Assembly (NCBI GenBank): GCA_044892505.1
Contig: CM097883.1
Span: 23,188,001 to 23,252,000 of the forward strand
Reading direction: 5' to 3'
DNA length: 64,000 nucleotides
DNA from: Schmidtea nova
Lineage: Eukaryota
A program made the position numbers and the translations under genes. This document shows positions 17,244 through 62,212 of the stretch, in pieces; the first letter of the stretch is position 1, and each line of letters starts with the position of its first letter. The notes beneath the pieces are model-generated. The model was not told the origin of the DNA, searched no databases, and worked only from the letters and a program-made list of their open reading frames with translations.

Positions 17244-17300
<57 letters not shown>

Positions 17301-17435
17301 CAATAATTCTCATAATGACTATAGATCAAAATTTTTTTTTTTTTATAAAAAAAAAAAATTTTGATCTATAGTCATTATGAGAATTATTGATAATAATAAT
17401 AAAAAAAGATCAAAGGTGAAAAAAGATAATTATGA

Positions 17436-17599: not shown

Positions 17600-17772
17600 A
17601 CTTAAACCATAAATTTGACGTTAAAATCACCTTAAATCGACCTTGACCCACTTTTTCTTACCTTTAAGTGCCCTTTAGCGAAAATTTAACCTTAGTGTCC
17701 TTAAATTGACCTTCGTAAAAAAATTTTCTAGGGGGTCGTGACCTATATCTTATGGGCTCACATCCTACTACT
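17600..17772. mobile_element. Isolated Polinton-type terminus
   Basis: Ends in CTACTACT (reverse complement AGTAGTAG), preceded by an A-tract, TTCTAG and a G-tract, the same layout as the 48966 terminus; subterminal GACCTT repeats. Confidence 0.55.
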
Positions 17773-20724: not shown

Positions 20725-21326
20725 AAATGATATGTATATTACTAGGGTTTAAAATTTTTGAATCTTGCACTTTTCAAGGGTACGACCATTGTGTGCACAT
20801 CTCAATTAGCTTTTGTTTGATACACATATTATATATTTTAGACCCTTTAAAGGTTTAGCACCCACCATACACCTTCGAGGGTATGACCATCTTACCTACC
20901 TCTCAAATACCTTTCAAATGATATATGTATTATAAGGTTTGAAGGTTTTTGACCCTTTCAAGGTTCAGGACCTTCCATACACCTTTGAAAGTATGACCAT
21001 CATACTTACCTCTCAATTACCTTTTGTTTGATATATAACTTGTAAGTATTGTAAAAGGTTGAAGGTTTTTGACCCTTTGAAGGTTAATGACCCTCCATAG
21101 ACCTTCGAGGGTATGACCATTGAATAGACCTCTTCAAGACCTTTCGAATGATACCCTTGTTTGAAGGTTTGACCTTATTTGACCTTTGGAAATTTAAATT
21201 TAAAATTTGAAATGAGTCATCAATTACGTCATCAAAAAAAATCGGGGGTGGGTTACGAAAATTACGTAATCGATGACGTAATTTCCTTTGTTCTGCGATG
21301 AGTCATGCTCCTCATAACTATCTACT
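20725..21326 (+). mobile_element. Left-truncated diverged copy of the AGTAG-ended mini-element
   Basis: Aligns to 40205-40821 (GATATGTATATTACTAGGG..., 120-bp GACCCTTT repeats) and ends GTCATGCTCCTCATAACTATCTACT. Confidence 0.85.
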
Positions 21327-27600: not shown

Positions 27601-28877
27601 GTGTTGCGGTCAAAATGTTTCCGGCCTACCCTACATAACAAATTGATTTTTTAATAGAAATAGGTTTATTTTATTGGAAATTTATTGACAATTTCATGTT
27701 GAAAATCTTATTGACCTAATCCATTTACTTTATCTGTTGCAGATGGAAATGTCGTTGCAAGTGCATTCGTTGGAAAAAATTGAGTATCGCAGTGCTATTC
27801 GCTTATGTGTTATTCTCGGCCAAACCAACCAGGAAATCATGGCAAATCTGAATCGAGCCTATGGCGAAAAGTGTCACTTTCAGTCTACCATCAAGTTTTG
27901 GATTGCTGAATTCAAACAGGGTTGGCAAAGTGTGTCAGATGAGGAACAAGAGGGTCGACCAAAGACTTCGAGAAATGAAGATGTGAAGGAAAAATTGGAG
28001 AAAATGGTACTGGAAGATCGTCGTATAACTACCAGGCAGCTGGAAGAATCTCCACAAATATCACACAGCACCGTAGTGCAATTATTGAAGAACCTTAACT
28101 TCAACAAGGTGGTGTCTCGCTTTGTGCCTCGCGTTTTGACAACTGAGATGTGCAATAACCGAAAGAATGCGTGTCTCATGAACCTCGCCATTTATCGCAA
28201 GTATGGAGAAAGATTTATCCAAAACATCCTCACTGTTGATGAGACACCGTTGCCCCTACATCAGCCTGAATCAAAGCGGGAGTCTATGTAATGGAGAAAG
28301 CCGGAAGAAGGAAAAGTTTGGAAGTCTCGTTCCGAAATGTCGCACAGACGGGAACTCATGTTGACTGTGTTTTGGAGTCATAAGGGAGTGATCCTCACCG
28401 ACTTTCTTGAGAAGGGACAGACAATCAGCGGAGAATATTACGGTAATCTCATTGAGCAAGCTAGCAGAAAGTGCCGAAAACCATATGGTCTCCCTCACTG
28501 GTTTCAACATGACAATGCGCCAGTTTATACCAGCCGCATTGCCCAAGCAAAACTCAATGACTGTGGCTTCGAGATCATTAGCCACCTTCCATACAGCCCT
28601 GATTTGGCTCCCTCAGATTACTGCCTATTTACGGAATTAAAGAAGCAACTGCTGGGACAGTATTTCATGGATGCAGGCGATTTAGAGGAGGCTGTAAATC
28701 GGATTTTTGACCAGCTTCAACCCTCATTTTACCATGGGGCATTCGAAGCCCTCCCTGGTCGTTGGCAGAAGTGTGTCGATGCCGGAGGTTATTGGTTCGA
28801 GAAGTAATGGTATTGGTGTTGATAAAAATATAGTTGTGGTTTCTTGCTTTTACTTTTTTGTGGGGTAGGCCGGAAAN
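27600..28877 (+). mobile_element. Mariner (DD34D) transposon; transposase interrupted by one in-frame stop
   Basis: Inserted at the TA of a (TA)n tract; TIR core ...GTTTCCGGCCTACCC and GGGTAGGCCGGAAA (right TIR cut by an N gap); FVPRVLT, TVDET, FQHDNAP and YSPDLAPSDY motifs; stop at 28289-28291. Confidence 0.95.
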
Positions 28878-29121: not shown

Positions 29122-29163
<42 letters not shown>

Positions 29164-29373
29164 AATAATTCCCATAATGGATGATTATAGATCAAAATTC
29201 TTTTAAATAAGTACACAATATTTCGGTACAGCCTTTATCAAGTGTGTGATACACACTTGATAAAAGCTGTGTCGAAATATCGTGTACATATTTAAAGAAA
29301 TTTTTATCTTTAGTCATCCATTATGGAAATTATTGATATTAATAATAAAAAAAGATCAAAGGTGAATAAAAAG

Positions 29374-30559: not shown

Positions 30560-31410
30560 AACGAGTCACATGCTTTATAATGTTCATATGCAAGAGTTTC
30601 ATTTTTTCCCACCCAAAACCTTTTATCATCCAAGTTCGTTAAGGCTACTTTATGGTTTTTATTAGTAAATAATTTATGATCTTTGCTAAATATTCGTGAT
30701 TGAGCAACAGAAACCATGGAATTATTATAATAACAATCCAGGTACGACGGATGTTTAGGTTAGTACCCTTCAATGTTATACCCTTAGCCTTAATGCTCTC
30801 TTTTTACCTAAAATACTATAACACTTTGGCCTAAAAAACAAGCACTCCTTATACTTGAGTCCTTTATTTTCATCTTTGAATTGTCCAATGACAAAATCGA
30901 GGTTTCTCGAGTACAAGGGATGATTTGGGTCATAATTGGAATTGTCTAATAACCTATCCCTAACCATAGCAGACAAAAGAAGATCAAATTTACAATTTTT
31001 ATCCTCCAAGAAGAAAGAGTTAGTGTCACCAGTTACTATATTAATCTCGCTGTTGAATTCATTACGATATTGTTGTAATTCTTCTTACTGGAGTTGATAC
31101 ATCCTAAGTTTAGATAGATTCAGTACAGTTTGGCCAATATAGCTGGATCTATCTAAATACACAGAGTCCTTATTAAGAAAGACATAAATTAAGTCATCAT
31201 CAATCTTATAAATTTTTCGAAAGGTAGGTTTTGAAGTTTATGTAATCAGTTTTGATGCTGAATTACATTGTCGTAAATTAAGTCTTTTCTTAAGATTCTC
31301 TACAGTTTTACCTTAAATTCTATTATTTAAAAATTTGTAAGAGTTCTTATCTAAAGCCGTAGAAGAAACTGCCCTAAGTTTAGTGTTTGTGTCAATGTTA
31401 TTTTAAAAAT
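30560..31410 (-). pseudogene. polB: Decayed Polinton protein-primed PolB C-terminus, a paralogue of the intact gene
   Basis: GKTVENLRKRLNLR, YIGQTVLNLSKLRMY, GDTNSFFL, HPLYSRNLDFVIGQFKDE, FRPKCYS and ALTNLDDKRFWVGKNE align with the intact PolB; stops and frameshifts present. Confidence 0.9.
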
Positions 31411-32751: not shown

Positions 32752-33426
32752 CTAAAAATTATATTAACACAATAATAATAATAAAATATTATTTCGCCCT
32801 AAAACAATATTCACTAGGGCTTCATATTTAAACTTGGATTTCGATAATCACCTTTTATTATTATTATCCTTATATCTTTCTCATTTTACGTATGAATGTA
32901 TTCTCCGATTTCCAAGACCTTTTTACATAATGATTAGTTGTTTGAATGATTAAGTCAATTTTTAAAACCTGTATTAAATCAACTATAACTAGTAAGAATA
33001 TTTTTTTTTTCGAGTAAGAGCAAGAATTCCGAATGAATATTAGAAAGATAGAGAGTGCTATTTTAGAGAAAGGGACCAAACATCGAAATGAGCACATATC
33101 TTCTATCGATAATTTTGAACCCATAGAAATTACTCGATCAATTATAGTTCTATTAATAGCGCTAAATTTGTGTTAGAATTTTGTCCAATAGTTACATTAC
33201 TAATGGTGCTTGCGACGAGTAACTACTAATTAAACAACAGTTATATTGTTACCATAGAATTGGACCCTGCTATGGTACCAACAAATGATTGTTAAGATTT
33301 TTTGATATGCCAATCTTTCCATTACAGATTTTTATTATGATCACTAGTAGGTAATTAATGGCCCTTGAACTCACTTCAAATTCTACCCACCCCCCCACCC
33401 CCCTAGAATTTTTTTTTTCTGAGTTT

Positions 33427-33790
33427 ACGGGCCACTATGTTTTTTCTGGCCATTTTTTGTATTGGAAATTTATTGTCGGTCTTTTGTACAGATGCGTTAG
33501 CGGGCCATTATGTTTTTGGGTCAATCTTTTTTATTGGAAAATTTTTGTCGGTCTCTTGTACAGGTGCGTTGACGGGCCACTATGTTTTTCTGGTCATTAT
33601 TGTATTGGAAATTTATTGTCGGTCTCTTGTACAGGTGCGTTGACGGGCCACTATGTTTTTCTGGTCATTATTGAATTGGAAATTTATTGTCGGTCTTTTG
33701 TACAGGTGCGTTTGCGGGCCATTATGTTTTTGGGTCGATCTTTGTATTGGAAAACTTTTCTCGGTCTTTTGTACAGGGATTTTTAGCTCC
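33427..33790. repeat. Subterminal tandem repeat, about 5 x 71-73 bp (left arm)
   Basis: CGGGCCA anchor at 33428, 33501, 33573, 33644 and 33715. Confidence 0.9.
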
Positions 33791-34090
33791 GAGATTTTTC
33801 TCGGGCAAAAAGGGACTCTAGTAATGTGAGAGTTGAAATGACACAATATTTAAAATTTAATAAAAAAAAAGGGTAAAATTAATTTTTTGGAGAAATCAGA
33901 GTTGGTAAATTTTTAAATATAAAATGAAATTCTTTTTTTCACAAAATTCTTTTTTAAACCAATAAAAGTCTTAACTAATAAAAAGAAAAATTTTTAACTA
34001 ATAAAAAGAAACATTTTTAACTAATAACAATTCAAATAAATAAAAAAAAACATTTTTAACTAAATTTTATTAAAATAAATACAAATTTTA

Positions 34091-37000
34091 TTAAAATAAA
34101 TCTTCTTCATCGTCTTCTTCTGTAACTTGATTGAATTCTCTGTCATTAGTGTCTTTATAATGCCCGTATGCACAACTTTCATTTTTTCCCACCCAAACCC
34201 TTTTATCATCATTATTAGTTAGTGCAATTTTTGAATTTTTAAAGCTATATAACTGATGATTTTTTGTACCTATTCTAAATTGTGGTACACTAATCTCTGA
34301 GTTATTTAAATAACATTTTACATATGAATCGTGGTCTATTTTAGTATCCTTTAATGTTGCTCCCTTAGCTTTTGTAGTATTAGTTTTACCCAACAAGCTG
34401 TAACATTTCGGTCTAAGGAAAATCCACTCATCATATCCTTCACCCTTACTTTCATCTTTGAATTTCCCAATAACAGAATCCAATTTCTTGCTGTATAGTG
34501 GGTGATCAGTTGGATAATTTGATGTATCTAACAAGTTATCATTTTTCATTTCATTTAATAATATTTCTAATTTTAGATTTTTAATTTCTAGAAAAAACGA
34601 ATCTGTATCGCCTGCTACGATATTTATCTGACAACTATATTTGTCGCGATATTTTTGTAAATCTTTGTATTGTAATTCGTACATTCGAAGTTTTGATAAA
34701 TCAAGCACCGATTGTCCAATATAACTCGGTCTATCTAAACAAATCGAATCTGGATTTAATAAAGCAGCAACTAAATTATCGTCGATTTTAATAGATTTTT
34801 TGAAAGAAGGTTTGGATGTATATATAACTAGTTTTTTCTCCGTTGAACATAATCTTAAATTCATTCTCCTTTTAAGATTTTCCACGGTTTTGCCATACAG
34901 ACTATTATTGAGTAATTTGAAAAAGTTTTTATCTAAAGTATTAGTACTTTTCGCCCGCAATTCAGTGTTGGTGTCTATATATTTTTTGAAAATAGGATAT
35001 TGCTTAAATTTAACTGCTCTATTTATCTTTGTGACTTTAACACCAAGTCCTAAATATAATTGAAGTAATCGCCAATGAATTATATAATTATTTTTAGGGT
35101 AATGAGTCAATAGTAATTTTTCTACTTTTGAACCTCGTGGTTTCATTTTTTCTGCAGCTACCGGGAAATCATCCAAGAAATCATGAATTTCAGCAGGTAT
35201 TTCCAAATCTACCTCTAAAGTGTAACCGTAAGATATAGATTCAAGATTTAGATTAATACAGTCATGCAAAATATTATCTAAATTATCAGTCACCCAACTA
35301 AATTCTCCACAAGGTAAAGGTTCACTTAAAGCCCATCCGTAAAGATTATTTATATCGATATACAATAATTCTGTATTTTCATCGGTTTTAACGAAGTGTT
35401 TATTTACAAAAGTCAAACCTCCTCGAATTCCCCCTTCATAAAAGCTAAACATTTCATTTTCTGTTATTAATTCCATTGGTTCATCTAAAGTCATTAAAGA
35501 AGATGACCAAGACATGCCAGGAATACCGAAGTAATTCAATGGTTCTAATCTATTGTGAGCTATAGATTTGGTTCGAAATTGCTGAAAGAAATCAGCCAAA
35601 AGAAAGCAATCAAGTTTCAAGTAAGTCATCATATAATCTAAAAGAGTAACACAGTTTGTTTCTGTCCAAATCAGTTGTGCCTTTTCATATTCTTCTTTTG
35701 AAACACCTTTCCAGATTGGTGGTAACTCATAAGTATTTTCAAGTACTTCTAAACTTGTAGCAAAGCTATACGGAAAAATCCCCTTTTCAGAAACTATAGT
35801 TCCATTAAAAACCAAATTTGTCAAAGGTAAAGATTTCAACGTTTTCACTGCCTTTGCCAAAGAATCATTCACAAACTGGTATGAGTCTATAAATCTTAAA
35901 CTAATCTTGTCAACATGAGCTATCAATGAAATAAATTTTTCAGTTGTAATTGGTATACAACCCAATGACCAATTCTTGAACTTATTTAATCCATGTTTAA
36001 GAATATGGTGCATATCATATCCTTTCAAGTTATGAAAAACTATTGGTAAAGACTTGTTGATTTTTCTATTAATGTTACACGTTTGACATGCTGCACCTAA
36101 ATATTTCCCAGTGAAATGGTCATGGTCTCTTACAGGATCTACGATATTTTTCATGCAAAGGTAACAAGTGGTACCATTTTTAAATTGATCCTCTTCAATT
36201 TCAGTCAATCTATTCATTGGTTTGTTTCCATTTTTATTGTAATATGGAAGAACTTTTAATAAAGCAATATCTTCAATCGCTTTTAAAAATTCATCTACAC
36301 AATTTAGTCCAATAAATTGTTGGTAAGATTTTGTCCCATCAAAGTTATTTATTAACAAAAGCCCCGCAGAAATAGGCAAGTGTTTCTGATAATATACATC
36401 ATCCTTTGGTAAAATAGCTTCAAAGTCTGCATAAATAACAAATGGTGGGGTAACAGTTTTTGACCAATCTGAAAATTTAAGCATTTTATTTTCCGGGAAA
36501 GTGTATAATGTTGTTCCTAGTTGATTTTTTCTGCATAAAATCTCATGTTTTTCCAACGATATTTTATTTGGGAAACCATTTAAACATCTACTGCACCATT
36601 CGCTTCTTATCCTAGTAGTACAATAAATGCTTTGGTGACAATTCATTAAACGTTTTAAATTTATAATAGGTACATAATGATATTTTTCCCCTTCATTTAA
36701 TAACAATAAATTTATAGTTTTTCCTTCTATTACTTTTGACCGATGAATAATATCCAAATGAGGATGCTTTAAAATATAATCATCTTGCTCTTCATTAATT
36801 TCATTATTATAACATAGTACATTTATGATCAATCCTGGATTCTTTGCTTCGAATTTTCTGATACTATTTAATTTCATGGGCATGTCTGATATATCATATT
36901 TGAGCTCTGACAAAAAATTTGTATATTTTGATACTCTTTCTTTATTTCTAGATATTGAATCATATTTTAATATAGCTAAAATGCTATATAAAAAACATAA

Positions 37001-38312
37001 ATTATCCTTATTATCAATGTTTAATATACATCTCTTTCCTTTTAATCTTTCAGGAGTTTTTACAATGCTTCTACCTGCTAACCTACTTATATTGGATATC
37101 TTAGTTACAACAAAACTTATTTCAGTAATACGATTAAGTACCCAACTGCTACCTAATTCCGCAAATGAAGTTATCTTTTCATTCAATTTTTTAATTCCCT
37201 CTTCGAAAAATGTCTGTGTCAGAGGTTTTGCACTATTGGAAATATTGTTTCTTTTAATTTCTCCATCTTTCTCAAATTCAACACAGATACCAAATTGTAT
37301 CTTCACATAGCCTATTTCATTAATTATTTCTATTAATTTATTAATTAATGATTGTGGAAAAATAATTTGCTTTATATTTAAATCACTAGTGTTAATTTTT
37401 AAAATCCTATGCGATCCATTTAAATCACTTTCAATGACAGGGAGAGGTTCTATAACACTTCCTCCAGTTTGATAAAATCCAACGTTCCAAAAATCTTCAA
37501 TCTCTTCCACCGTTTCAATTAAAATCTTGTTTTTGTCCGTTTCGTCCGCTTCCATCGCTTCTAATAAAATCTTATCTTCAATCTCTTCTTGTAAATTTTG
37601 TGATTTCTTGATTATTTCTATGTTCAATTTAATCTTTTTATTATTAATAGGGTTTTGAGTCAAGTTTGGTCTTTTAAATAATTTTATTTTCTTAGACCTA
37701 TATTCATTTAAATGATCCTTATGTTCATCGTAAAAATTTTTATATGTAAGGGGTTGGGAAGTTTGGCATACGGGACATATATAATAGCGAATTTTATAAT
37801 AAGAGTGTCCATAATATTGCTCCATTGATCGATGACAATTATCGTTGTGGTCAGTTGAAAAGCAATAATTTGGGTATAAAGCACCTATGAATGTAAATTA
37901 ATGTTAAAAATAATAATAATATTATCAAATTATATATTTACAAATATTTTACTATATTTATTTACTAAATTAATTAAAATATAATTAAATTAATTAAAAT
38001 TAATCAATACTTACATTGGTCATTCAATACCACATCAGGTATAACTCCATTATTCATATTATTTTCGTCACTAATAATCTTAGTTTGTACGGTAGTTAGT
38101 TCAGTCATATTTACATCACCTAAAGTAAAAATTAAATAATATATTATGTTTAAGATTAAGTACCATTTTCTTCTGTATTTTCTAACAACGATTTCCCAAT
38201 TGAATTATTGATATTACCTAAATTACTACTAAATGATAATAAATTAAAAAATAAATTTACCGTTTTCTTTCCCACTTGGGTTTTCGTTCATAAAACTTGT
38301 TATCGTGTTCAT
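34091..38312 (-). CDS. polB: Protein-primed family B DNA polymerase, left copy; 1244-aa ORF, 1334 aa if spliced
   Basis: ExoI YADFE, ExoII HNLKGYD, ExoIII YLKLD, motif A DINNLYG, motif B KLLNNSLYGK, motif C GDTDS. Predicted exons 38312-38261, 38217-38164, 38119-38015 and 37884-34091. Confidence 0.95.
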
Positions 38313-38340
38313 TTTTAAAGTTTATTATTTGTAAAAGTGA

Positions 38341-38451
38341 ATAATGAATGAAAAAGTATTGTTTATATATCAAAGTTATTACACACACATAACCTTTGAC
38401 CAATAAAAATCGAGTAAGGGGTAGGAAATTTATTCTTATCAGCCAATCAGA
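38341..38451 (-). promoter_or_regulatory. Putative Pol II promoter of the left PolB
   Basis: Mirror image of 43860-43970. Confidence 0.5.
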
Positions 38452-38859
38452 ATCGAGTAAGAGGCAGTAAAGGTATTATTATCATCAGATAGAGAATTAT
38501 GACTAATTATATATTACGTTGCAGTATTTTAAAAAAACTAGAAAAGTTATTTCAACAAATTATAATACACATCAAAGTTATAAAATATTTCAATGAATTG
38601 CATGCATGTCATATGATTAAAATATATTAGACTAAATATTTCAGTAAATTACGTCTAAATTATATTACATTTCAATAATTACGTCAGTTATAAAAAATAT
38701 TTTAATTAATTTTGATAAAATACATTAGAATTGTCAATAACACACACAAAACCTTTATAATTTTCATTAGTATATGATAGAAAATTAAATTATATCTACA
38801 CATGATTAAAATAAATATTCGATAAATCTATGCTAAATAGTCGAAAAAATCCCAGTATT

Positions 38860-39950
38860 TTATTACAAAACACGTGTGCATCACAAACATATCAATATAC
38901 TTAATTTTGAATCAAGCCATTTTATAGATATTTAAATTTTATCTATATGTAATTACAATGAAAACTCACTAAAGTTATTTTAAATAACTAAAACTTACAA
39001 AATTAATTACAAAACACGTGTGTAACACGAAAAACGACAACTTTTAGATTTTGAATCAAACCATTTTATAGGAAATTAAATTTTACATATACTTTATTAC
39101 AATGAAAAGTCAATAAATTTATTTTATATACATGAAAAATGCAAAATTAATTACAAAACACGTGCGTAACACCAAAAACGACAACTTTTAGATTTTGAAT
39201 CAAGCCATTTTATAGCAATTTAAATTTTATCTATACTTTATTACAATGAAAAGTCAATAAATTTATTTTATATACACGAAAAATGCAAAATTAATTACAA
39301 AACACGTGTGTATTACAAACACACTAGCAAACTAATTTTCTAATCAAGCCATTTTATAGGAAATTAAATTGTACTTATACTTTATTACAATGAAAACTCA
39401 ATAAATTTATTTTATATACACGAAAAATGCAAAATTAATTACAAAACACGTGTGTATTACAAAATACGACAACTTTCAGATTTCTAATAAAGCAATTTTG
39501 TAGACATTTAAATTTTACACATATAATATTACAAGGAAAACTCAATAAATTTATTTTATATACACGAAAATGTAAAATTAATTACAAAACACGTGTGCAT
39601 TACAAACACACCAACAAACTAAATTTCTAATCAAGCCATTTTATAGGAAATTAAATTTTACTTATACTTTATTACAATGAAAAATACATAAAGTTACTTT
39701 ATATTGTTAAAAATTTGAAAATTCAAAATAAAACACGTGTGCATCACAAAATACGACAACTTTCAGAATTCTAATAAAGCTATTTTGTAGACAATTAAAT
39801 TTTATCTATACAATATTACAATGAAAACTCAAAAAAGTTATTTTATTTAGGTGAAATAAACAAATTTAATGACAAAACACGTGTGCACAACAATATACAC
39901 AACATTTTGAATTTTTAATTCAGCCATTTTGTAGACAATAAAATTCTGTC
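38860..39950. repeat. Tandem array of 8 x 144 bp, each unit with CACGTG (left arm)
   Basis: CACGTG at 38871, 39015, 39159, 39303, 39447, 39590, 39734 and 39878. Confidence 0.9.
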
Positions 39951-40024
39951 TATCTATTGTTACACTTAAAACCTGATCAGGCCCGAATAAAGTGTCAAAG
40001 AACCCGTCAGAAAAAAAACAGGAT

Positions 40025-40821
40025 AGTAGATAGTTATGAGAAGCATAACTCATCGAAATTACGTCATAATTACATAATATTTCGTGACCCCCCCCCCCGT
40101 GTAAATTCTTTAAATTTTTTTTTTTTTGAAAATTTTACCTTGGAACCTTTGACCATAGACCTTTGAGCGTATAACTACCATGTACATCTCTCAAATACCT
40201 TTCGAATGATATGTATATTACTAGGGTTTAAAATTTTTGAATCTTGCACTTTTCAAGGGTACGACCATTGTGTGCACATCTCAATTAGCTTTTGTTTGAT
40301 ACCCATATTATATATATTAGACCCTTTAAAGGTTGAGCACCCTCCATGTACCTTCAAGGGTATGACTACCATACTCACCCTTTAATTACCTTTTGTTTGA
40401 TGTACATATTATAAGAATTAAAAAAGGTTGAAGGTTTTTGACCCTTTCAAGGTTCAGGACACTCCATACACCTTTGAAAGTATGACCATCATACTTACCT
40501 CTCAATTACCTTTTGTTTGATATGTATATTATAAGGTTTGAAAAAAGTTGAAGGTTTTTGACCCTTTGAAGGTCAATGACCCTCCATAAACCTTCGAGGG
40601 TATGACCATTGGATAGACCTCTCCAAGACCTTTCGAATGATACCATTGTTTGAAGGTTTGACCTTATTTGACCTTTGGAAATTTAAATTTAAAATTTGAA
40701 TTTGAAATTACGTCATCGATTACGCCATCAAAAAAAAATCGGGGGGGGAGGGGGGGGGTCACGAAATATTACGTAATTATGACGTAATTTTGATGAGTCA
40801 TGCTCCTCATAACTATCTACT
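40025..40821 (+). mobile_element. 797-bp non-coding mini-element with AGTAG/CTACT ends
   Basis: About 70-bp imperfect TIRs starting AGTAGATAGTTATGAG; internal 120-bp repeats (GACCCTTT at 40320, 40440, 40560); repeated TTACGTCAT motifs. Confidence 0.8.
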
Positions 40822-41488
40822 ATCCTGTTTTTTTTCTGACGGGTTCTTTGACACTTTATTCGGGCCTGATCAGGTTTTAAGTGTAACAATAGATAGACAG
40901 AATTTTATTGTCTACAAAATGGCTGAATTAAAAATTCAAAATGTTGTGTATATTGTTGTGCACACGTGTTTTGTCATTAAATTTGTTTATTTCACCTAAA
41001 TAAAATAACTTTTTTGAGTTTTCATTGTAATATTGTATAGATAAAATTTAATTGTCTACAAAATAGCTTTATTAGAATTCTGAAAGTTGTCGTATTTTGT
41101 GATGCACACGTGTTTTATTTTGAATTTTCAAATTTTTAACAATATAAAGTAACTTTATGTATTTTTCATTGTAATAAAGTATAAGTAAAATTTAATTTCC
41201 TATAAAATGGCTTGATTAGAAATTTAGTTTGTTGGTGTGTTTGTAATGCACACGTGTTTTGTAATTAATTTTACATTTTCGTGTATATAAAATAAATTTA
41301 TTGAGTTTTCCTTGTAATATTATATGTGTAAAATTTAAATGTCTACAAAATTGCTTTATTAGAAATCTGAAAGTTGTCGTATTTTGTAATACACACGTGT
41401 TTTGTAATTAATTTTGCATTTTTCGTGTATATAAAATAAATTTATTGAGTTTTCATTGTAATAAAGTATAAGTACAATTTAATTTCCT
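40822..41488 (+). repeat. Central spacer: direct copy of 42287-42953 and inverted copy of 39358-40024
   Basis: Starts ATCCTGTTTT like 42287 (offset 1465); contains four CACGTG units; stops at AATTTCCT, where AGTAGTAG begins. Confidence 0.9.
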
Positions 41489-42286
41489 AGTAGTAGATAG
41501 TTATGAGGAGCATGACTCATCAAAATTACGTCATAATTACGTAATATTTCGTGACCCCCCCTCCCCCCCGATTTTTTTTTGATGGCGTAATCGATGACGT
41601 AATTTCAAATTCAAATTTTAAATTTAAATTTCCAAAGGTCAAATAAGGTCAAACCTTCAAACAATGGTATCATTCGAAAGGTCTTGGAGAGGTCTATCCA
41701 ATGGTCATACCCTCGAAGGTTTATGGAGGGTCATTGACCTTCAAAGGGTCAAAAACCTTCAACTTTTTTCAAACCTTATAATATACATATCAAACAAAAG
41801 GTAATTGAGAGGTAAGTATGATGGTCATACTTTCAAAGGTGTATGGAGTGTCCTGAACCTTGAAAGGGTCAAAAACCTTCAACCTTTTTTAATTCTTATA
41901 ATATGTACATCAAACAAAAGGTAATTAAAGGGTGAGTATGGTAGTCATACCCTTGAAGGTACATGGAGGGTGCTCAACCTTTAAAGGGTCTAATATATAT
42001 AATATGGGTATCAAACAAAAGCTAATTGAGATGTGCACACAATGGTCGTACCCTTGAAAAGTGCAAGATTCAAAAATTTTAAACCCTAGTAATATACATA
42101 TCATTCGAAAGGTATTTGAGAGATGTACATGGTAGTTATACGCTCAAAGGTCTATGGTCAAAGGTTCCAAGGTAAAATTTTCAAAAAAAAAAAAATTTAA
42201 AGAATTTACACGGGGGGGGGGGGTCACGAAATATTATGTAATTATGACGTAATTTCGATGAGTTATGCTTCTCATAACTATCTACT
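41489..42286 (-). mobile_element. Second, inverted copy of the mini-element
   Basis: Reverse complement of 40025-40821, differing only in homopolymer lengths as far as seen; its left end reads AGTAGTAGATAG. Confidence 0.8.
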
Positions 42287-42360
42287 ATCCTGTTTTTTTT
42301 CTGACGGGTTCTTTGACACTTTATTCGGGCCTGATCAGGTTTTAAGTGTAACAATAGATA

Positions 42361-43451
42361 GACAGAATTTTATTGTCTACAAAATGGCTGAATTAAAAAT
42401 TCAAAATGTTGTGTATATTGTTGTGCACACGTGTTTTGTCATTAAATTTGTTTATTTCACCTAAATAAAATAACTTTTTTGAGTTTTCATTGTAATATTG
42501 TATAGATAAAATTTAATTGTCTACAAAATAGCTTTATTAGAATTCTGAAAGTTGTCGTATTTTGTGATGCACACGTGTTTTATTTTGAATTTTCAAATTT
42601 TTAACAATATAAAGTAACTTTATGTATTTTTCATTGTAATAAAGTATAAGTAAAATTTAATTTCCTATAAAATGGCTTGATTAGAAATTTAGTTTGTTGG
42701 TGTGTTTGTAATGCACACGTGTTTTGTAATTAATTTTACATTTTCGTGTATATAAAATAAATTTATTGAGTTTTCCTTGTAATATTATATGTGTAAAATT
42801 TAAATGTCTACAAAATTGCTTTATTAGAAATCTGAAAGTTGTCGTATTTTGTAATACACACGTGTTTTGTAATTAATTTTGCATTTTTCGTGTATATAAA
42901 ATAAATTTATTGAGTTTTCATTGTAATAAAGTATAAGTACAATTTAATTTCCTATAAAATGGCTTGATTAGAAAATTAGTTTGCTAGTGTGTTTGTAATA
43001 CACACGTGTTTTGTAATTAATTTTGCATTTTTCGTGTATATAAAATAAATTTATTGACTTTTCATTGTAATAAAGTATAGATAAAATTTAAATTGCTATA
43101 AAATGGCTTGATTCAAAATCTAAAAGTTGTCGTTTTTGGTGTTACACACGTGTTTTGTAATTAATTTTGCATTTTTCATGTATATAAAATAAATTTATTG
43201 ACTTTTCATTGTAATAAAGTATATGTAAAATTTAATTTCCTATAAAATGGTTTGATTCAAAATCTAAAAGTTGTCGTTTTTCGTGTTACACACGTGTTTT
43301 GTAATTAATTTTGTAAGTTTTAGTTATTTAAAATAACTTTAGTGAGTTTTCATTGTAATTACATATAGATAAAATTTAAATATCTATAAAATGGCTTGAT
43401 TCAAAATTAAGTATATTGATATGTTTGTGATGCACACGTGTTTTGTAATAA
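42361..43451. repeat. Tandem array of 8 x 144 bp with CACGTG (right arm)
   Basis: Mirror of 38860-39950; first CACGTG at 42428. Confidence 0.9.
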
Positions 43452-43859
43452 AATACTGGGATTTTTTCGACTATTTAGCATAGATTTATCGAATATTTAT
43501 TTTAATCATGTGTAGATATAATTTAATTTTCTATCATATACTAATGAAAATTATAAAGGTTTTGTGTGTGTTATTGACAATTCTAATGTATTTTATCAAA
43601 ATTAATTAAAATATTTTTTATAACTGACGTAATTATTGAAATGTAATATAATTTAGACGTAATTTACTGAAATATTTAGTCTAATATATTTTAATCATAT
43701 GACATGCATGCAATTCATTGAAATATTTTATAACTTTGATGTGTATTATAATTTGTTGAAATAACTTTTCTAGTTTTTTTAAAATACTGCAACGTAATAT
43801 ATAATTAGTCATAATTCTCTATCTGATGATAATAATACCTTTACTGCCTCTTACTCGAT

Positions 43860-43970
43860 TCTGATTGGCTGATAAGAATAAATTTCCTACCCCTTACTCG
43901 ATTTTTATTGGTCAAAGGTTATGTGTGTGTAATAACTTTGATATATAAACAATACTTTTTCATTCATTAT
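43860..43970 (+). promoter_or_regulatory. Putative Pol II promoter of the right PolB
   Basis: Two inverted CCAAT boxes (ATTGG at 43864 and 43907), TATATAAA at 43942-43949 and TCATT initiator-like sequences near 43960, upstream of the ATG at 43999. Confidence 0.5.
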
Positions 43971-43998
43971 TCACTTTTACAAATAATAAACTTTAAAA

Positions 43999-46900
43999 AT
44001 GAACACGATAACAAGTTTTATGAACGAAAACCCAAGTGGGAAAGAAAACGGTAAATTTATTTTTTAATTTATTATCATTTAGTAGTAATTTAGGTAATAT
44101 CAATAATTCAATTGGGAAATCGTTGTTAGAAAATACAGAAGAAAATGGTACTTAATCTTAAACATAATATATTATTTAATTTTTACTTTAGGTGATGTAA
44201 ATATGACTGAACTAACTACCGTACAAACTAAGATTATTAGTGACGAAAATAATATGAATAATGGAGTTATACCTGATGTGGTATTGAATGACCAATGTAA
44301 GTATTGATTAATTTTAATTAATTTAATTATATTTTAATTAATTTAGTAAATAAATATAGTAAAATATTTGTAAATATATAATTTGATAATATTATTATTA
44401 TTTTTAACATTAATTTACATTCATAGGTGCTTTATACCCAAATTATTGCTTTTCAACTGACCACAACGATAATTGTCATCGATCAATGGAGCAATATTAT
44501 GGACACTCTTATTATAAAATTCGCTATTATATATGTCCCGTATGCCAAACTTCCCAACCCCTTACATATAAAAATTTTTACGATGAACATAAGGATCATT
44601 TAAATGAATATAGGTCTAAGAAAATAAAATTATTTAAAAGACCAAACTTGACTCAAAACCCTATTAATAATAAAAAGATTAAATTGAACATAGAAATAAT
44701 CAAGAAATCACAAAATTTACAAGAAGAGATTGAAGATAAGATTTTATTAGAAGCGATGGAAGCGGACGAAACGGACAAAAACAAGATTTTAATTGAAACG
44801 GTGGAAGAGATTGAAGATTTTTGGAACGTTGGATTTTATCAAACTGGAGGAAGTGTTATAGAACCTCTCCCTGTCATTGAAAGTGATTTAAATGGATCGC
44901 ATAGGATTTTAAAAATTAACACTAGTGATTTAAATATAAAGCAAATTATTTTTCCACAATCATTAATTAATAAATTAATAGAAATAATTAATGAAATAGG
45001 CTATGTGAAGATACAATTTGGTATCTGTGTTGAATTTGAGAAAGATGGAGAAATTAAAAGAAACAATATTTCCAATAGTGCAAAACCTCTGACACAGACA
45101 TTTTTCGAAGAGGGAATTAAAAAATTGAATGAAAAGATAACTTCATTTGCGGAATTAGGTAGCAGTTGGGTACTTAATCGTATTACTGAAATAAGTTTTG
45201 TTGTAACTAAGATATCCAATATAAGTAGGTTAGCAGGTAGAAGCATTGTAAAAACTCCTGAAAGATTAAAAGGAAAGAGATGTATATTAAACATTGATAA
45301 TAAGGATAATTTATGTTTTTTATATAGCATTTTAGCTATATTAAAATATGATTCAATATCTAGAAATAAAGAAAGAGTATCAAAATATACAAATTTTTTG
45401 TCAGAGCTCAAATATGATATATCAGACATGCCCATGAAATTAAATAGTATCAGAAAATTCGAAGCAAAGAATCCAGGATTGATCATAAATGTACTATGTT
45501 ATAATAATGAAATTAATGAAGAGCAAGATGATTATATTTTAAAGCATCCTCATTTGGATATTATTCATCGGTCAAAAGTAATAGAAGGAAAAACTATAAA
45601 TTTATTGTTATTAAATGAAGGGGAAAAATATCATTATGTACCTATTATAAATTTAAAACGTTTAATGAATTGTCACCAAAGCATTTATTGTACTACTAGG
45701 ATAAGAAGCGAATGGTGCAGTAGATGTTTAAATGGTTTCCCAAATAAAATATCGTTGGAAAAACATGAGATTTTATGCAGAAAAAATCAACTAGGAACAA
45801 CATTATACACTTTCCCGGAAAATAAAATGCTTAAATTTTCAGATTGGTCAAAAACTGTTACCCCACCATTTGTTATTTATGCAGACTTTGAAGCTATTTT
45901 ACCAAAGGATGATGTATATTATCAGAAACACTTGCCTATTTCTGCGGGGCTTTTGTTAATAAATAACTTTGATGGGACAAAATCTTACCAACAATTTATT
46001 GGACTAAATTGTGTAGATGAATTTTTAAAAGCGATTGAAGATATTGCTTTATTAAAAGTTCTTCCATATTACAATAAAAATGGAAACAAACCAATGAATA
46101 GATTGACTGAAATTGAAGAGGATCAATTTAAAAATGGTACCACTTGTTACCTTTGCATGAAAAATATCGTAGATCCTGTAAGAGACCATGACCATTTCAC
46201 TGGGAAATATTTAGGTGCAGCATGTCAAACGTGTAACATTAATAGAAAAATCAACAAGTCTTTACCAATAGTTTTTCATAACTTGAAAGGATATGATATG
46301 CACCATATTCTTAAACATGGATTAAATAAGTTCAAGAATTGGTCATTGGGTTGTATACCAATTACAACTGAAAAATTTATTTCATTGATAGCTCATGTTG
46401 ACAAGATTAGTTTAAGATTTATAGACTCATACCAGTTTGTGAATGATTCTTTGGCAAAGGCAGTGAAAACGTTGAAATCTTTACCTTTGACAAATTTGGT
46501 TTTTAATGGAACTATAGTTTCTGAAAAGGGGATTTTTCCGTATAGCTTTGCTACAAGTTTAGAAGTACTTGAAAATACTTATGAGTTACCACCAATCTGG
46601 AAAGGTGTTTCAAAAGAAGAATATGAAAAGGCACAACTGATTTGGACAGAAACAAACTGTGTTACTCTTTTAGATTATATGATGACTTACTTGAAACTTG
46701 ATTGCTTTCTTTTGGCTGATTTCTTTCAGCAATTTCGAACCAAATCTATAGCTCACAATAGATTAGAACCATTGAATTACTTCGGTATTCCTGGCATGTC
46801 TTGGTCATCTTCTTTAATGACTTTAGATGAACCAATAGAATTAATAACAGAAAATGAAATGTTTAGCTTTTATGAAGGGGGAATTCGAGGAGGTTTGACT

Positions 46901-48220
46901 TTTGTAAATAAACACTTCGTTAAAACCGATGAAAATACAGAATTATTGTATATCGATATAAATAATCTTTACGGATGGGCTTTAAGTGAACCTTTACCTT
47001 GTGGAGAATTTAGTTGGGTGACTGATAATTTAGATAATATTTTGCATGACTGTATTAATCTAAATCTTGAATCTATATCTTACGGTTACACTTTAGAGGT
47101 AGATTTGGAAATACCTGCTGAAATTCATGATTTCTTGGATGATTTCCCGGTAGCTGCAGAAAAAATGAAACCACGAGGTTCAAAAGTAGAAAAATTACTA
47201 TTGACTCATTACCCTAAAAATAATTATATAATTCATTGGCGATTACTTCAATTATATTTAGGACTTGGTGTTAAAGTCACAAAGATAAATAGAGCAGTTA
47301 AATTTAAGCAATATCCTATTTTCAAAAAATATATAGACACCAACACTGAATTGCGGGCGAAAAGTACTAATACTTTAGATAAAAACTTTTTCAAATTACT
47401 CAATAATAGTCTGTATGGCAAAACCGTGGAAAATCTTAAAAGGAGAATGAATTTAAGATTATGTTCAACGGAGAAAAAACTAGTTATATATACATCCAAA
47501 CCTTCTTTCAAAAAATCTATTAAAATCGACGATAATTTAGTTGCTGCTTTATTAAATCCAGATTCGATTTGTTTAGATAGACCGAGTTATATTGGACAAT
47601 CGGTGCTTGATTTATCAAAACTTCGAATGTACGAATTACAATACAAAGATTTACAAAAATATCGCGACAAATATAGTTGTCAGATAAATATCGTAGCAGG
47701 CGATACAGATTCGTTTTTTCTAGAAATTAAAAATCTAAAATTAGAAATATTATTAAATGAAATGAAAAATGATAACTTGTTAGATACATCAAATTATCCA
47801 ACTGATCACCCACTATACAGCAAGAAATTGGATTCTGTTATTGGGAAATTCAAAGATGAAAGTAAGGGTGAAGGATATGATGAGTGGATTTTCCTTAGAC
47901 CGAAATGTTACAGCTTGTTGGGTAAAACTAATACTACAAAAGCTAAGGGAGCAACATTAAAGGATACTAAAATAGACCACGATTCATATGTAAAATGTTA
48001 TTTAAATAACTCAGAGATTAGTGTACCACAATTTAGAATAGGTACAAAAAATCATCAGTTATATAGCTTTAAAAATTCAAAAATTGCACTAACTAATAAT
48101 GATGATAAAAGGGTTTGGGTGGGAAAAAATGAAAGTTGTGCATACGGGCATTATAAAGACACTAATGACAGAGAATTCAATCAAGTTACAGAAGAAGACG
48201 ATGAAGAAGATTTATTTTAA
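43999..48220 (+). CDS. polB: Protein-primed family B DNA polymerase, right copy; 1244-aa ORF, 1334 aa if spliced
   Basis: Same motifs as the left copy, with one Met/Ile difference. Predicted exons 43999-44050, 44094-44147, 44192-44296 and 44427-48220; AATAAA follows the stop. Confidence 0.95.
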
Positions 48221-48520
48221 TAAAATTTGTATTTATTTTAATAAAATTTAGTTAAAAATGTTTTTTTTTATTTATTTGAATTGTTATTAGTTAAAAATGT
48301 TTCTTTTTATTAGTTAAAAATTTTTCTTTTTATTAGTTAAGACTTTTATTGGTTTAAAAAAGAATTTTGTGAAAAAAAGAATTTCATTTTATATTTAAAA
48401 ATTTACCAACTCTGATTTCTCCAAAAAATTAATTTTACCCTTTTTTTTTATTAAATTTTAAATATTGTGTCATTTCAACTCTCACATTACTAGAGTCCCT
48501 TTTTGCCCGAGAAAAATCTC

Positions 48521-48884
48521 GGAGCTAAAAATCCCTGTACAAAAGACCGAGAAAAGTTTTCCAATACAAAGATCGACCCAAAAACATAATGGCCCGCAAA
48601 CGCACCTGTACAAAAGACCGACAATAAATTTCCAATTCAATAATGACCAGAAAAACATAGTGGCCCGTCAACGCACCTGTACAAGAGACCGACAATAAAT
48701 TTCCAATACAATAATGACCAGAAAAACATAGTGGCCCGTCAACGCACCTGTACAAGAGACCGACAAAAATTTTCCAATAAAAAAGATTGACCCAAAAACA
48801 TAATGGCCCGCTAACGCATCTGTACAAAAGACCGACAATAAATTTCCAATACAAAAAATGGCCAGAAAAAACATAGTGGCCCGT
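48521..48884. repeat. Subterminal 71-73 bp tandem repeat (right arm)
   Basis: Mirror of 33427-33790. Confidence 0.9.
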
Positions 48885-48966
48885 AAACTCAGAAAAAAAA
48901 AATTCTAGGGGGGTGGGGGGGGTGGGTAGAATTTGAAGTGAGTTCAAGGGCCATTAATTACCTACT

Positions 48967-49190
48967 ATCACTAATATTGGAAACTCACTTCGGTCGACCA
49001 TGTTCAAGAACTTGAGTACAGAGATGACGAGTGGTCTCTTCAATGTATGTGGCATCACACCTATTACGTTGAAATTGATAAACGAGATCTGGACACAATC
49101 GAAACGGAGTTTGCGACTTATTAAGAAACATATTACTCAGTTTGCAGGAATTGGAGACAATATTAAAATTTAACCCGCTCAACAGCTTAC
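48967..49190 (-). mobile_element. Penelope-like GIY-YIG remnant, continuing at about 33290-33345 on the other side of the insertion
   Basis: LVYQFQRNRCDATYIEETTRHLCTQVLEHGRPK*VSNISD continues as HNK(I)CNGKIG once the element and one TSD copy are removed. Confidence 0.75.
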
Positions 49191-54011: not shown

Positions 54012-54353
54012 TTAAAATGAGTCATGAAAATAAGTTTTCTTGTGGTTGATAAATATCGGTTCATTGCAAGATAATTTCTTGTTGATTTTCATCAACATTT
54101 TATTGATTGCAACAACATCTTCTTTATAAAGCTGACCGATTAAGTTTGAATATTGAGAAGTCGACATCTTGTGATTGTGCAGAGCAGAAGCATTTCCACT
54201 TTCGAGTTGGATGCACATGTCATGAATTAATGCCGGTATCCCCAATACTACTTCAACGGTATAACCGTATGTTAGTAAATGCAAATCTACTGTTGTCCAC
54301 TCATTAATTATTTGATTTAATAAATGATTGTCAGTTACCCATTGACAGTTCAA
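54012..54353 (-). pseudogene. polB: Decayed Polinton PolB internal fragment
   Basis: QWVTDNHLLNQIINE...YGYTVEVVLGIPALIHD matches WVTDNLDNILHD...YGYTLEVDLEIPAEIHD of the intact gene. Confidence 0.8.
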
Positions 54354-59460: not shown

Positions 59461-59740
59461 CTAAAATAATTTAATTCAAAAAGAATTTTTTTTATATTAA
59501 AACTTAAATGCTCTAAAGCACGGGTTCTTAAAAATTTTATAGTCACGGTTCAACTAATAACCATATTTTTTTCTGTGGCCACAATTCCTTCATTATTTAG
59601 ACTTTTTTATAAAATATCAATTTGTTATTATCTTACTATAAAAGAAATAAACTTATTTATAAAAGAAAAAATAAATAAATCCATAACATTTATAAAAATA
59701 AATAAAACAATATTTTTTTAAATATATTATTGCAATATAT

Positions 59741-59945
59741 TTCAAAAGCTCAGCTGTAATCATCAGACTTAAAATAATTTTTAATTAATTTTACTAGGTT
59801 AACAAAAGTTTTATTGGAATGTGCACATGTGATTGTGTAATCACTAATTAACGTATAAATAAAATCAATTTTAATTTAATTGAATTTGTTTAAAGCCTGA
59901 TGATGACAGCTGAGTTTTCGAAATAAATTGCAACGATAAATTTAA
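59741..59945. ncRNA. Inverted pair of degenerate hammerhead-like motifs (second pLTR family); repeated near 60541-60755
   Basis: CTGATGA-TGACAGCTGAGTTTTC-GAAA on plus (about 59897) and CTGATGA-TTACAGCTGAGCTTTT-GAAA on minus (about 59775). Confidence 0.5.
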
Positions 59946-61243
59946 AAAATTGTGTTCTTTTATTTATTTGAATAAATTGATATTATNNNNNNNNNNNNNN
60001 NNNNNNNNNNNNNNNNNNNNNNNNNNNNNNNNNNNNNNNNNNNNNNNNNNNNNNNNNNNNNNNNNNNNNNNNNNNNNNNNNNNNNNNNNNNNNNNNNNNN
60101 NNNNNNNNNNNNNNNNNNNNNNNNNNNNNNNNNNNNNNNNNNNNNNNNNNNNNNNNNNNNNNNNNNNNNNNNNNNNNNNNNNNNNNNNNNNNNNNNNNNN
60201 NNNNNNNNNNNNNNNNNNNNNNNNNNNNNNNNNNNNNNNNNNNNNNNNNNNNNNNNNNNNNNNNNNNNNNNNNNNNNNNNNNNNNNNNNNNNNNNNNNNN
60301 NNNNNNNNNNNNNNNNNNNNNNNNNNNNNNNNNNNNNNNNNNNNNNNNNNNNNNNNNNNNNNNNNNNNNNNNNNNNNNNNNNNNNNNNNNNNNNNNNNNN
60401 CATTATTTAGACTTTTTTATAAAATATCAATTTGTTATTATCTTACTATAAAAGAAATAAACTTATTTATAAAAGAAAAAATAAATAAATCCATAACATT
60501 TATAAAAATAAATAAAACAATATTTTTTTAAATATATTATTGCAATATATTTCAAAAGCTCAGCTGTAATCATCAGACTTAAAATAATTTTTAATTAATT
60601 TTACTAGGTTAACAAAAGTTTTATTGGAATGTGCACATGTGATTGTGTAATCACTAATTAACGTATAAATAAAATCAATTTTAATTTAATTGAATTTGTT
60701 TAAAGCCTGATGATGACAGCTGAGTTTTCGAAATAAATTGCAACGATAAATTTAAAAAATTGTGTTCTTTTATTTATTTGAATAAATTGATATTATNNNN
60801 NNNNNNNNNNNNNNNNNNNNNNNNNNNNNNNNNNNNNNNNNNNNNNNNNNNNNNNNNNNNNNNNNNNNNNNNNNNNNNNNNNNNNNNNNNNNNNNNNNNN
60901 NNNNNNNNNNNNNNNNNNNNNNNNNNNNNNNNNNNNNNNNNNNNNNNNNNNNNNNNNNNNNNNNNNNNNNNNNNNNNNNNNNNNNNNNNNNNNNNNNNNN
61001 NNNNNNNNNNNNNNNNNNNNNNNNNNNNNNNNNNNNNNNNNNNNNNNNNNNNNNNNNNNNNNNNNNNNNNNNNNNNNNNNNNNNNNNNNNNNNNNNNNNN
61101 NNNNNNNNNNNNNNNNNNNNNNNNNNNNNNNNNNNNNNNNNNNNNNNNNNNNNNNNNNNNNNNNNNNNNNNNNNNNNNNNNNNNNNNNNNNNNNNNNNNN
61201 NNNNNNNNNNNNNNNNNNNNNNNNNNNNNNNNNNNNNNNNNNN

Positions 61244-62212
61244 ACCTTTGATCTTTTTTTATTATTATTATCAATAATTCTCATAATGACTATAGATCAA
61301 AATTTTTTTTTATAAACAATAACACAATATTTCGGCACAGCCTTTATCAAGTGTGTATTTCTATCGTTATATTTACTTAATCCTAAATAGTAGCCTTAAT
61401 TATTTTTTTAATATTTTATAATGATTTTATTGGATGAAAAAATTTATTTTATTTTAATTTTTTTTGTGCGAATTGAATGTTGATGGAAGGTTTGTATTTT
61501 TTTATGAAAAAAGTCTCGGAAGCTAATCTTTGTAATGAATTTTTGAATCCCTCTTGTAGGATCTGGCATTTTGTTTCTTCTATAGATGGAGTTGTTTTAT
61601 GTACTTTTTCCCAGTGTTCGTAATAATTACTGGTTTTGATTTTAGTATGTTCATTAAGTCGGGTGCGAAAAGTTCTATGTGTTTCTCCTATGTAAGTAGC
61701 GTCACATTTTTGACAAGAAAGTTTATATACTATATTTTTGGAAAAGCATATAAACTTTTCCAAAAATATAGTATATAAACTTTCTTGTCAAAAATGTGAC
61801 GCTACTTACATAGGAGAAACACATAGAACTTTTCGCACCCGACTTAATGAACATACTAAAATCAAAACCAGTAATTATTACGAACACTGGGAAAAAGTAC
61901 ATAAAACAACTCCATCTATAGAAGAAACAAAATGCCAGATCCTACAAGAGGGATTCAAAAATTCATTACAAAGATTAGCTTCCGAGACTTTTTTCATAAA
62001 AAAATACAAACCTTCCATCAACATTCAATTCGCACAAAAAAAATTAAAATAAAATAAATTTTTTCATCCAATAAAATCATTATAAAATATTAAAAAAATA
62101 ATTAAGGCTACTATTTAGGATTAAGTAAATATAACGATAGAAATACACACTTGATAAAGGCTGTGCCGAAATATTGTGTTATTGTTTATAAAAAAAAATT
62201 TTGATCTATAGT
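61244..62212. mobile_element. Head-to-head palindrome of a Penelope-like 3' end (GIY-YIG C-terminus plus pLTR)
   Basis: Arms of about 460-500 bp around an 8-nt loop (61747-61754); both arms encode IVYKLSCQKCDATYIGETHRTFRTRLNEH...ETFFIKKYKPSIN; flanked by N gaps. Confidence 0.8.
62144..62179 (+). ncRNA. Minimal type I hammerhead ribozyme candidate (U3-A8 variant)
   Basis: ACAC-TTGATAA-A-GGCtgtGCC-GAA-ATAT-T-GTGT: 4-bp stem I, 3-bp stem II and palindromic stem III; mirrored near 61325-61360. Confidence 0.55.

Follow-up and report, generated by a model that had tools for sequence, protein, structure and literature searches.

A 64,000-nucleotide stretch of the Schmidtea nova genome (assembly GCA_044892505.1, contig CM097883.1, positions 23,188,001 to 23,252,000, forward strand), referred to as the window, was found to hold a mirror-image mobile element of about 15.6 kb with features of Polintons (Mavericks). 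From left to right, it comprised arm A, a mini-element called M, a 667-bp inverted piece of the arm, the trinucleotide AGT, an inverted copy of M and the inverted arm A' (Table 1). Self-BLAST of the window returned it as one inverted repeat, 33345-40822 against 48967-41491, with 7,481 aligned bases and 99.87% identity. The halves differed by two substitutions (35474/46837 and 39165/43146) and by homopolymer lengths at 33390, 40088 and 40748-40751. The 667-bp piece was 100% identical to 42287-42953, and the second copy of M differed from the first in C/G run lengths only. The six bases ATCACT were present on both sides of the element (chance of the 6-mer recurring 0.00034, for this one locus), and the flanks were otherwise different. 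A simple mirror chimera, from amplification or a missed adapter, could be dismissed at the outer boundaries, where two different flanks share this direct repeat.

Table 1. Features of the palindromic element and related sequences in the window.
Feature	Position	Strand	Description
Lone end, third family	17600-17772	-	AGTAGTAGG, C-tract, T-tract, AAGGT-rich interior like M
Third M copy, diverged	20723-21326	+	86% over M positions 178-797; absent from the initial annotation
Left target duplication	33340-33345	+	ATCACT; alternative reading: 4-bp TCAC with TAG ends
Arm A	33346-40024	+	Outer AGTAGG end, C/T tracts, 71-bp array, pPolB, upstream region, 144-bp array, tip CAGGAT
71-bp array in arm A	33423-33777
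pPolB, left copy	34091-37825	-	Intact, 1244 aa, protein-primed family B polymerase
144-bp array in arm A	38862-39945
Mini-element M	40025-40821	+	797 bp, non-coding
Left terminal inverted repeat of M	40025-40096
120-bp tandem units inside M	40320-40642
Right terminal inverted repeat of M	40750-40821
Inverted copy of inner arm A	40822-41488	+	667 bp; ends within 144-bp array
Extra AGT	41489-41491	+	Gives second M copy an (AGT)2 end
Inverted M copy	41492-42286	-	795 bp, right end first
Inverted arm A'	42287-48966	-	Versus arm A: 2 substitutions and 1 homopolymer indel
pPolB, right copy	44486-48220	+	Intact, 1244 aa
Right target duplication	48967-48972	+	ATCACT

The initial annotation had described a 797-bp element with AGTAG and CTACT ends and terminal inverted repeats (TIRs) of about 70 bp at the symmetry centre, without a target site duplication. 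The M-centred arrangement is real and all coordinates of that annotation held. The TIRs measured 72 bp at 94% identity, with mismatches at positions 17, 23, 31 and 50. M folds with z = -11.9 against 20 shuffles, and its longest stop-free frame was 72 codons. M is not peculiar to this locus, as it is a dispersed, multi-copy and non-coding element bounded by TIRs. The third copy had an intact right end joined to unrelated non-arm DNA (CTACT/ATAAGT), and its left end was absent. M may plausibly be a parasite of Polintons resembling a miniature inverted-repeat transposable element (MITE). Six-base repeats around a solitary M were not found: the third copy has no left end, and no flank was present at M termini among the contig matches listed.

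Both ends of M abutted the same arm base in inverted orientation (CAGGAT before the left end, ATCCTG after the right end), and outward from M perfect pairing extended for 668 bp (39357-40024 against 40822-41489). M is thus the symmetry centre of a local palindrome only, of which it forms the loop. The 15.6-kb palindrome has its axis within the 667-bp piece, which places M and its copy in the arms. The second M begins exactly where the 667-bp piece stops, with AGTAGTAG starting at 41489, as had been claimed. Compared with all other M ends, this sequence is longer by one AGT, and its first A coincides with the following base of the arm, a microhomology of one base. The flanks of M were inverted and not direct repeats at any length. 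If the ends are AGTAG/CTACT, there is indeed no direct repeat of 3-6 bp at M. Every M end and both outer ends have a T before AGTAG; judged from this locus alone, a TA duplication, or TAG as the true terminus, would therefore be a possible alternative to the claimed absence of a duplication. The junctions 40024/40025 and 42286/42287 represent one left-end junction that was copied, and the four junctions reduce to three events, not four insertions. Both new junctions, 40821/40822 and 41488/41489, used the right end of M; at the former, the right end was followed by a mirror copy of the sequence preceding the left end. The right TIR retained its own bases at positions 17 and 23, which it has in common with the third copy, and therefore any switch would have occurred within the last 16 bases.

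The host element carried a protein-primed family B polymerase (pPolB) in each arm. Both frames were intact with exonuclease and polymerase motifs, and the copies differed at residue 784 only. Relatives of pPolB made up 2160 of 7998 scored candidates; the best showed 45-60% identity and many were annotated as PF03175. The sole Pfam match at cut-off was a stretch of Endonuclease_7 (HNH-type) at residues 549-585. Nematode and oomycete Polintons of the pPolB2 class are characterised by an HNH insert in the available text of bioRxiv 10.1101/2023.08.22.554363, and the insert found here recalls that class. Frames for an integrase, packaging ATPase, protease or major and minor capsid proteins were not present in the open reading frame lists of the element, short frames lying outside the Pfam scan. 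Among other ATG frames of at least 150 aa, only one of 161 aa was present, antisense inside pPolB. Stop-to-stop frames of at least 90 aa in the left arm were antisense in pPolB or within the 71-bp array. The host element behaves like a defective Polinton and is not an autonomous member. Three short exons were predicted upstream of the right pPolB (43999-44050, 44094-44147 and 44192-44296, plus strand) and mirrored in the left arm. They were stop-free, with GT-AG introns of 43, 44 and 130 bases in phase 1 and an acceptor before 44427, in frame with the open reading frame. Splicing would be unusual for a Polinton polymerase, as intact elements of vertebrates lack introns according to the available text of PMC8097293. 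At 43827-43911 (and at 38400-38484), two 43-bp repeats with ATTGG/CCAAT boxes just upstream of the first predicted exon represent a candidate promoter.

The ends of M had been regarded as unrelated to the outer termini beyond AGTAG. This was overstated, as nine of the first 11 bases match. M and the outer ends also have a common layout, consisting of AGTAG, 45-65 bases, a C-tract, a T-tract and a tandem array. The window contained nine C5+...T6+ motifs. AGTAG was located at most 75 bases upstream in seven of these and 78 bases upstream in the third M copy, against a background of 4.7% per 75 bases; the eight motifs stem from three end families and are not independent. The third family was represented by the lone end at 17772, for which no partner was found in the window. 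It had CCCCCTAGAA in common with the outer end and matched M at 7 of 11 terminal bases. AAGGT occurred 29 times per kb in its interior and 25 times per kb in M, with a background of 1.6. The sequence evidence supports Polinton-type ends for M, because their anatomy is common to the outer termini, which enclose an intact pPolB and are accompanied by a 6-bp duplication, and because pPolB-bearing viral contigs have AGTAGT ends.

These relatives were identified in viral contigs. A single-protein scan gave no pPolB relative. An alignment scan with 25 sequences gave 13 loci with related polymerases of 24-33% identity, none of them palindromic. The locus L044 had TIRs starting AGTAGT with a C-tract, flanked by AACGTC and AACGTA (5/6 match). 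One of its AGTAGT ends is preceded by C, so T is not obligatory among the relatives. This 11.1-kb element (L044:192-11301) had a split pPolB and a capsid protein matching Sputnik-type Pfam models. The contigs L039, with integrase and A32 ATPase matches, and L048, with an A32 ATPase match, started GTAGTAGT at the contig start. A 6.5-kb viral contig (L045:1-6543) held 272-bp TIRs starting GTGTGTGT, a 1115-aa pPolB relative and two other long frames only; by its gene content, it is probably a very small self-synthesising element. Exact matches to the first 16 bases of M were found at 32 loci of the viral contigs, and in no case did the likeness to M go further. Three near-identical metagenome loci, matching a 20-base M pattern with 22 bases, were rejected as chance, having neither an inverted partner nor a C-tract. 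The outer-end anatomy pattern was present in 120 viral stretches, and none of 168 loci resembled an end from the window at an E-value of 1e-4 or lower. An autonomous Polinton with the TIR of M was not found among the viral or metagenome contigs.

Taken together, M likely served as the hinge for the fold-back of a Polinton, which turned into a palindrome by copying itself. It is quite possible, if tentative, that the free right end of a linear molecule of arm plus M folded onto the 72-bp left repeat of M and self-primed a mirror copy. In such a course, the tip of the pPolB arm would first have acquired M, or alternatively a terminus from a second Polinton-type family, attached through the left TIR. 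This would yield a 7.5-kb unit E with the order outer end, pPolB, 144-bp array and M; the junction is present in the assembly and the joining is its presumed origin. Protein-primed polymerases displace single strands. On a displaced E strand, the 3' right end would pair with the 72-bp left TIR and prime copying of the arm. The geometry is that observed, the fold-back is proposed by analogy with spaced inverted repeats in yeast, and a free right end is presumed. In yeast, inverted repeats of 94% identity with kilobase spacers in single-stranded DNA give rise to inverted dimers, and fold-back at spaced inverted repeats replaces the far flank by a mirror of the near flank, according to the available text of PMC10164571. 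Because the far flank is lost, no duplication would be visible, whatever the rule of M itself; the right flank would mirror the left flank and therefore none could remain. After 667 bases, the nascent strand would encounter a second E at its right end, with the connection made by a jump to the 3' end through the 1-base A/T match or by an integrase acting at one end. Completion of the copy as far as the outer end would give E, spacer and inverted E, a product whose junction is observed at 41488/41489. Speculatively, the extra AGT could be the full, untrimmed (AGT)2 terminus of a free molecule. The product with two identical outer ends would then have been integrated by an integrase acting in trans, supplied by a presumed helper, leaving ATCACT. 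Self-priming at the right end is favoured because both new junctions use the right end of M and the left-end junctions are one that was copied. The initial proposal that Polinton-type ends, and not random breaks, created the junctions was thus upheld in part: the ends are Polinton-like and the 41489 junction lies within 3 bases of an M terminus, an event of about 1% by chance, but the missing duplication needs no special end chemistry. The sequence (AGT)2, as read at 41489, is the commonest Maverick end motif in the available text of PMC8097293. A more far-reaching extension is possible but doubtful. The M class may consist of Polinton-ended parasites of less than 1 kb that give an arm a second terminus and thereby a self-priming hairpin, and the locus would be a frozen intermediate in which one right end had folded back and another had been joined with an unprocessed (AGT)2 tip. 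The way in which palindromic Mavericks come about would thereby be explained.

Contigs of four out of six listed sequencing runs, X2 and X6 being left out, were placed on 41250-42714, with 17,693 records for X3, 9,496 for X4, 7,282 for X5 and 34 for X1; none spanned the stretch. The 120-bp and 144-bp units were highly repeated and diverse in organism B, the source of X3, X4 and X5. For these three runs, respectively, summed depth was 218,441, 20,724 and 11,263 in the right-TIR bin (41495-41543), 18,520, 2,834 and 1,189 in the left-TIR bin (42230-42278) and 30,343, 1,510 and 2,061 in the arm-tip bin (42279-42327). The right-TIR bin was 7 to 12 times deeper than the left-TIR bin in all three, and the left-TIR bin was within a factor of two of the arm-tip bin. 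The right end of M thus seems commoner than the left, with left end and tip similarly abundant, a pattern that fits a common right end and a rarer pairing of left end and tip. Run X1 (share 0.09) gave no cover on either TIR bin. The window held four N gaps, none inside the 15.6 kb. An exact 396-bp duplicate lay astride one gap (59591-59986 and 60401-60796), and a near-perfect palindrome of 924 bp lay between gaps (61289-62212); both are possible assembly artefacts.

Several observations weigh against the fold-back reading. Summed contig depth is not equal to copy number, X3-X5 belong to one study and contigs from either TIR can fit both places. None of the contig joints listed bridged 41488/41489, which is neither support nor disproof, and the only loose end at 41489 among those listed, from X1, ran on as array and not as M. 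This assembly makes or keeps artefact-like repeats. A full M with two independent flanks was not found, which bears on the assumption of a 6-bp rule for M. On five of five independent junction sides AGTAG was preceded by T (p approximately 0.004), a pattern compatible with an A..T target bias but likewise with TA duplications or with TAG ends. The Repbase rule permits at most one mismatch in terminal bases 1-11, according to the available text of PMC4455052. With two mismatches to the outer end, M would by this rule be kept apart from the outer element. A full (AGT)2 is found at neither integrated end. Finally, no helper for integration was seen, the element itself being devoid of integrase, ATPase and capsid genes.

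In one alternative, the outer ends and one A-M-A' palindrome would be real and the doubled centre, the 667-bp piece and the second M, would be an assembly error. Such an error could have arisen from a path through collapsed repeats that borrowed the M/array junction of a sister element, or from merged flip orientations of M. The M copies differ in homopolymer lengths only, the 667-bp piece is identical to arm A', both repeat units are very abundant in the contigs of X3, X4 and X5, exact duplicates beside a gap and a palindrome bounded by gaps are also present in the window, and the 41488/41489 joint was bridged by none of the contigs listed. A random mis-join, however, would meet an M end within 3 bases, as at 41489, in only about 1% of cases and would not add AGT. 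The 15.6 kb are free of N, and the two substitutions between the arms show that they are not one sequence written twice. The 144-bp units are diverged (76-84% within the array), so a borrowed junction needs a near-identical sister element, and an error of this kind is considered unlikely. Alternatively, the rearrangement could have been chromosomal. An integrated Polinton with M would have been broken, resected, folded back at the TIRs of M by host repair, copied along the arm and rejoined to the far end via TIR homology, with the original 6-bp duplication kept and a second break giving the 41489 junction. Host fold-back at spaced inverted repeats is established in the available text of PMC10164571; the duplication would be accounted for without a helper that integrates a palindrome, and the two arms are nearly identical. 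The second break, however, would have to be repaired exactly onto the right end of M plus a 3-base terminal repeat. This course is considered very unlikely.

Two other explanations assign the ends to different transposon classes. M could be a MITE of unrelated cut-and-paste type, ending in GTAG/CTAC and duplicating TA, that was inserted in the central TA of a hairpin (CAGGA-TA-TCCTG), with later one-ended or alternative transposition setting the right end at another TA of the array. TA is found at every M junction and a native TA of the arm at the 41489 break, removal of GTAG...CTAC plus one TA leaves a perfect palindrome centre, and mariner-type transposase remnants are present in the window. 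Against this, Tc1/mariner ends usually resemble CAG. TA-GTAG is read at the outer ends as well, where four more bases are nevertheless duplicated, and M has the same end anatomy. The extra 3 bases at 41489 would be unexplained and M must have struck the exact hairpin axis. A single TA match is weak, as TA makes up 12% of array positions, and on balance an unrelated MITE is distinctly unlikely. Academ ends are TAG/CTA, and all ends could instead be TAGTAG...CTACTA of an Academ-like family with a 4-bp TCAC duplication, in which case pPolB would be cargo and M a non-autonomous member. TAGTAG was present at eight of eight ends tabulated, and the two extra matching bases of the 6-bp reading are expected by chance at 12%. 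In the available text of PMC10045372, AcademX makes 3- or 4-bp duplications. On the other hand, the only long gene of the element is a Polinton-type polymerase, related polymerases occur in AGTAGT-ended contigs, and C at one L044 end does not fit a TAG terminus. No Academ transposase turned up, although none was searched for. Membership of an Academ-like family is considered highly improbable. A Helitron/Helentron reading of the 144-bp array (tip A/TC) was dropped, as neither a sub-terminal inverted repeat nor a 3' hairpin was conspicuous in the 25 longest of 101 inverted pairs.

Other sequences in the window included a mariner-type transposase remnant at 27743-28807 (plus strand) in two frames, with a Transposase_1 match at E 3e-12 and helix-turn-helix matches below cut-off. 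BLAST of M on the window gave no match to its TIR there. A degraded second pPolB was located 2 kb left of the element at 30574-31396 (minus strand), oriented as the left copy. It was frameshifted, with 62-63% identity to residues 950-1224, and a further trace of 42 residues was present at 54216-54341. A short hairpin-shaped repeat family occurred in (ATT)n tracts at 17285-17405, 29147-29351 and 61244-61358.

Vertebrate Mavericks have (AGT)2, (AG)3 or (AC)3A ends and 6-bp duplications (available text of PMC8097293), lengths of 12.7-24.6 kb and inverted repeats of 46-1447 bp (available text of PMC8097293 and bioRxiv 10.1101/2023.08.22.554363). The element of S. nova resembles Polintons/Mavericks in its AGTAG-type ends, 6-bp duplication, intact pPolB and length of 15.6 kb, which is within the vertebrate range. 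It differs in its 7.5-kb inverted repeat, two polymerase copies, extra AGTAG ends inside, the absence of integrase, ATPase, protease and capsid frames, and predicted introns upstream of the long frame. Its integrated ends read AGTAGG, or AGTAGA, and not (AGT)2; AGTAGG matches the latter at 5/6, on a motif list drawn from vertebrates. MITEs and foldback-type non-autonomous TIR elements with internal tandem repeats are a known class. M resembles them in being less than 1 kb, non-coding, TIR-bounded, internally repetitive and multi-copy, but its ends are Polinton-like. The two ends also differ about tenfold in summed contig depth, so many M copies may be ends of larger elements. Tetrahymena rDNA (ribosomal DNA) and Streptomyces linear-plasmid palindromes are examples of inverted dimers. 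Linear viruses form snap-back or copy-back defective genomes, which the element resembles in its two identical ends, the loss of half of the genome and presumed helper dependence. The yeast Alu-IR inverted dimers described in the available text of PMC10164571 have, like the element, long mirror arms, a non-palindromic spacer bounded by a short inverted repeat and the same flank on both sides. Unlike these, the locus described here involves a virus-like mobile element, the repeat is the end of an element and a second terminus-precise junction follows 667 bases on. Particular to this locus is the intact polymerase pair together with an identifiable mini-element at the turning point. Non-autonomous Polintons exist in Repbase. 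Palindromic Polintons or Polinton-derived MITEs were not found in the titles and abstract openings retrieved, most subscription journals and Repbase Reports being outside the search. The available text of PMC11071193, PMC8504770, PMC6431247 and PMC3014272 contained nothing on Polinton MITEs, and PMC3014272 remarks that non-autonomous Polintons are apparently lacking in the anole.

Almost all that is said about how Polintons replicate and integrate is still deduced from sequence. If the centre were mis-assembled, a defective palindromic Polinton and an abundant repeat family would remain. If it is real, the locus preserves a record of two events at a defined end of an element. It could then be tested whether displaced strands of Polintons prime themselves at internal TIRs, whether free ends are longer by one AGT than integrated ends and whether Polinton integrases mobilise MITE-like passengers of 0.8 kb. 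The locus would also point to a possible origin for palindromic Maverick-ended elements. Should the interpretation as a frozen intermediate be true, it would provide a sequence-level view of a free Polinton end before trimming by the integrase.

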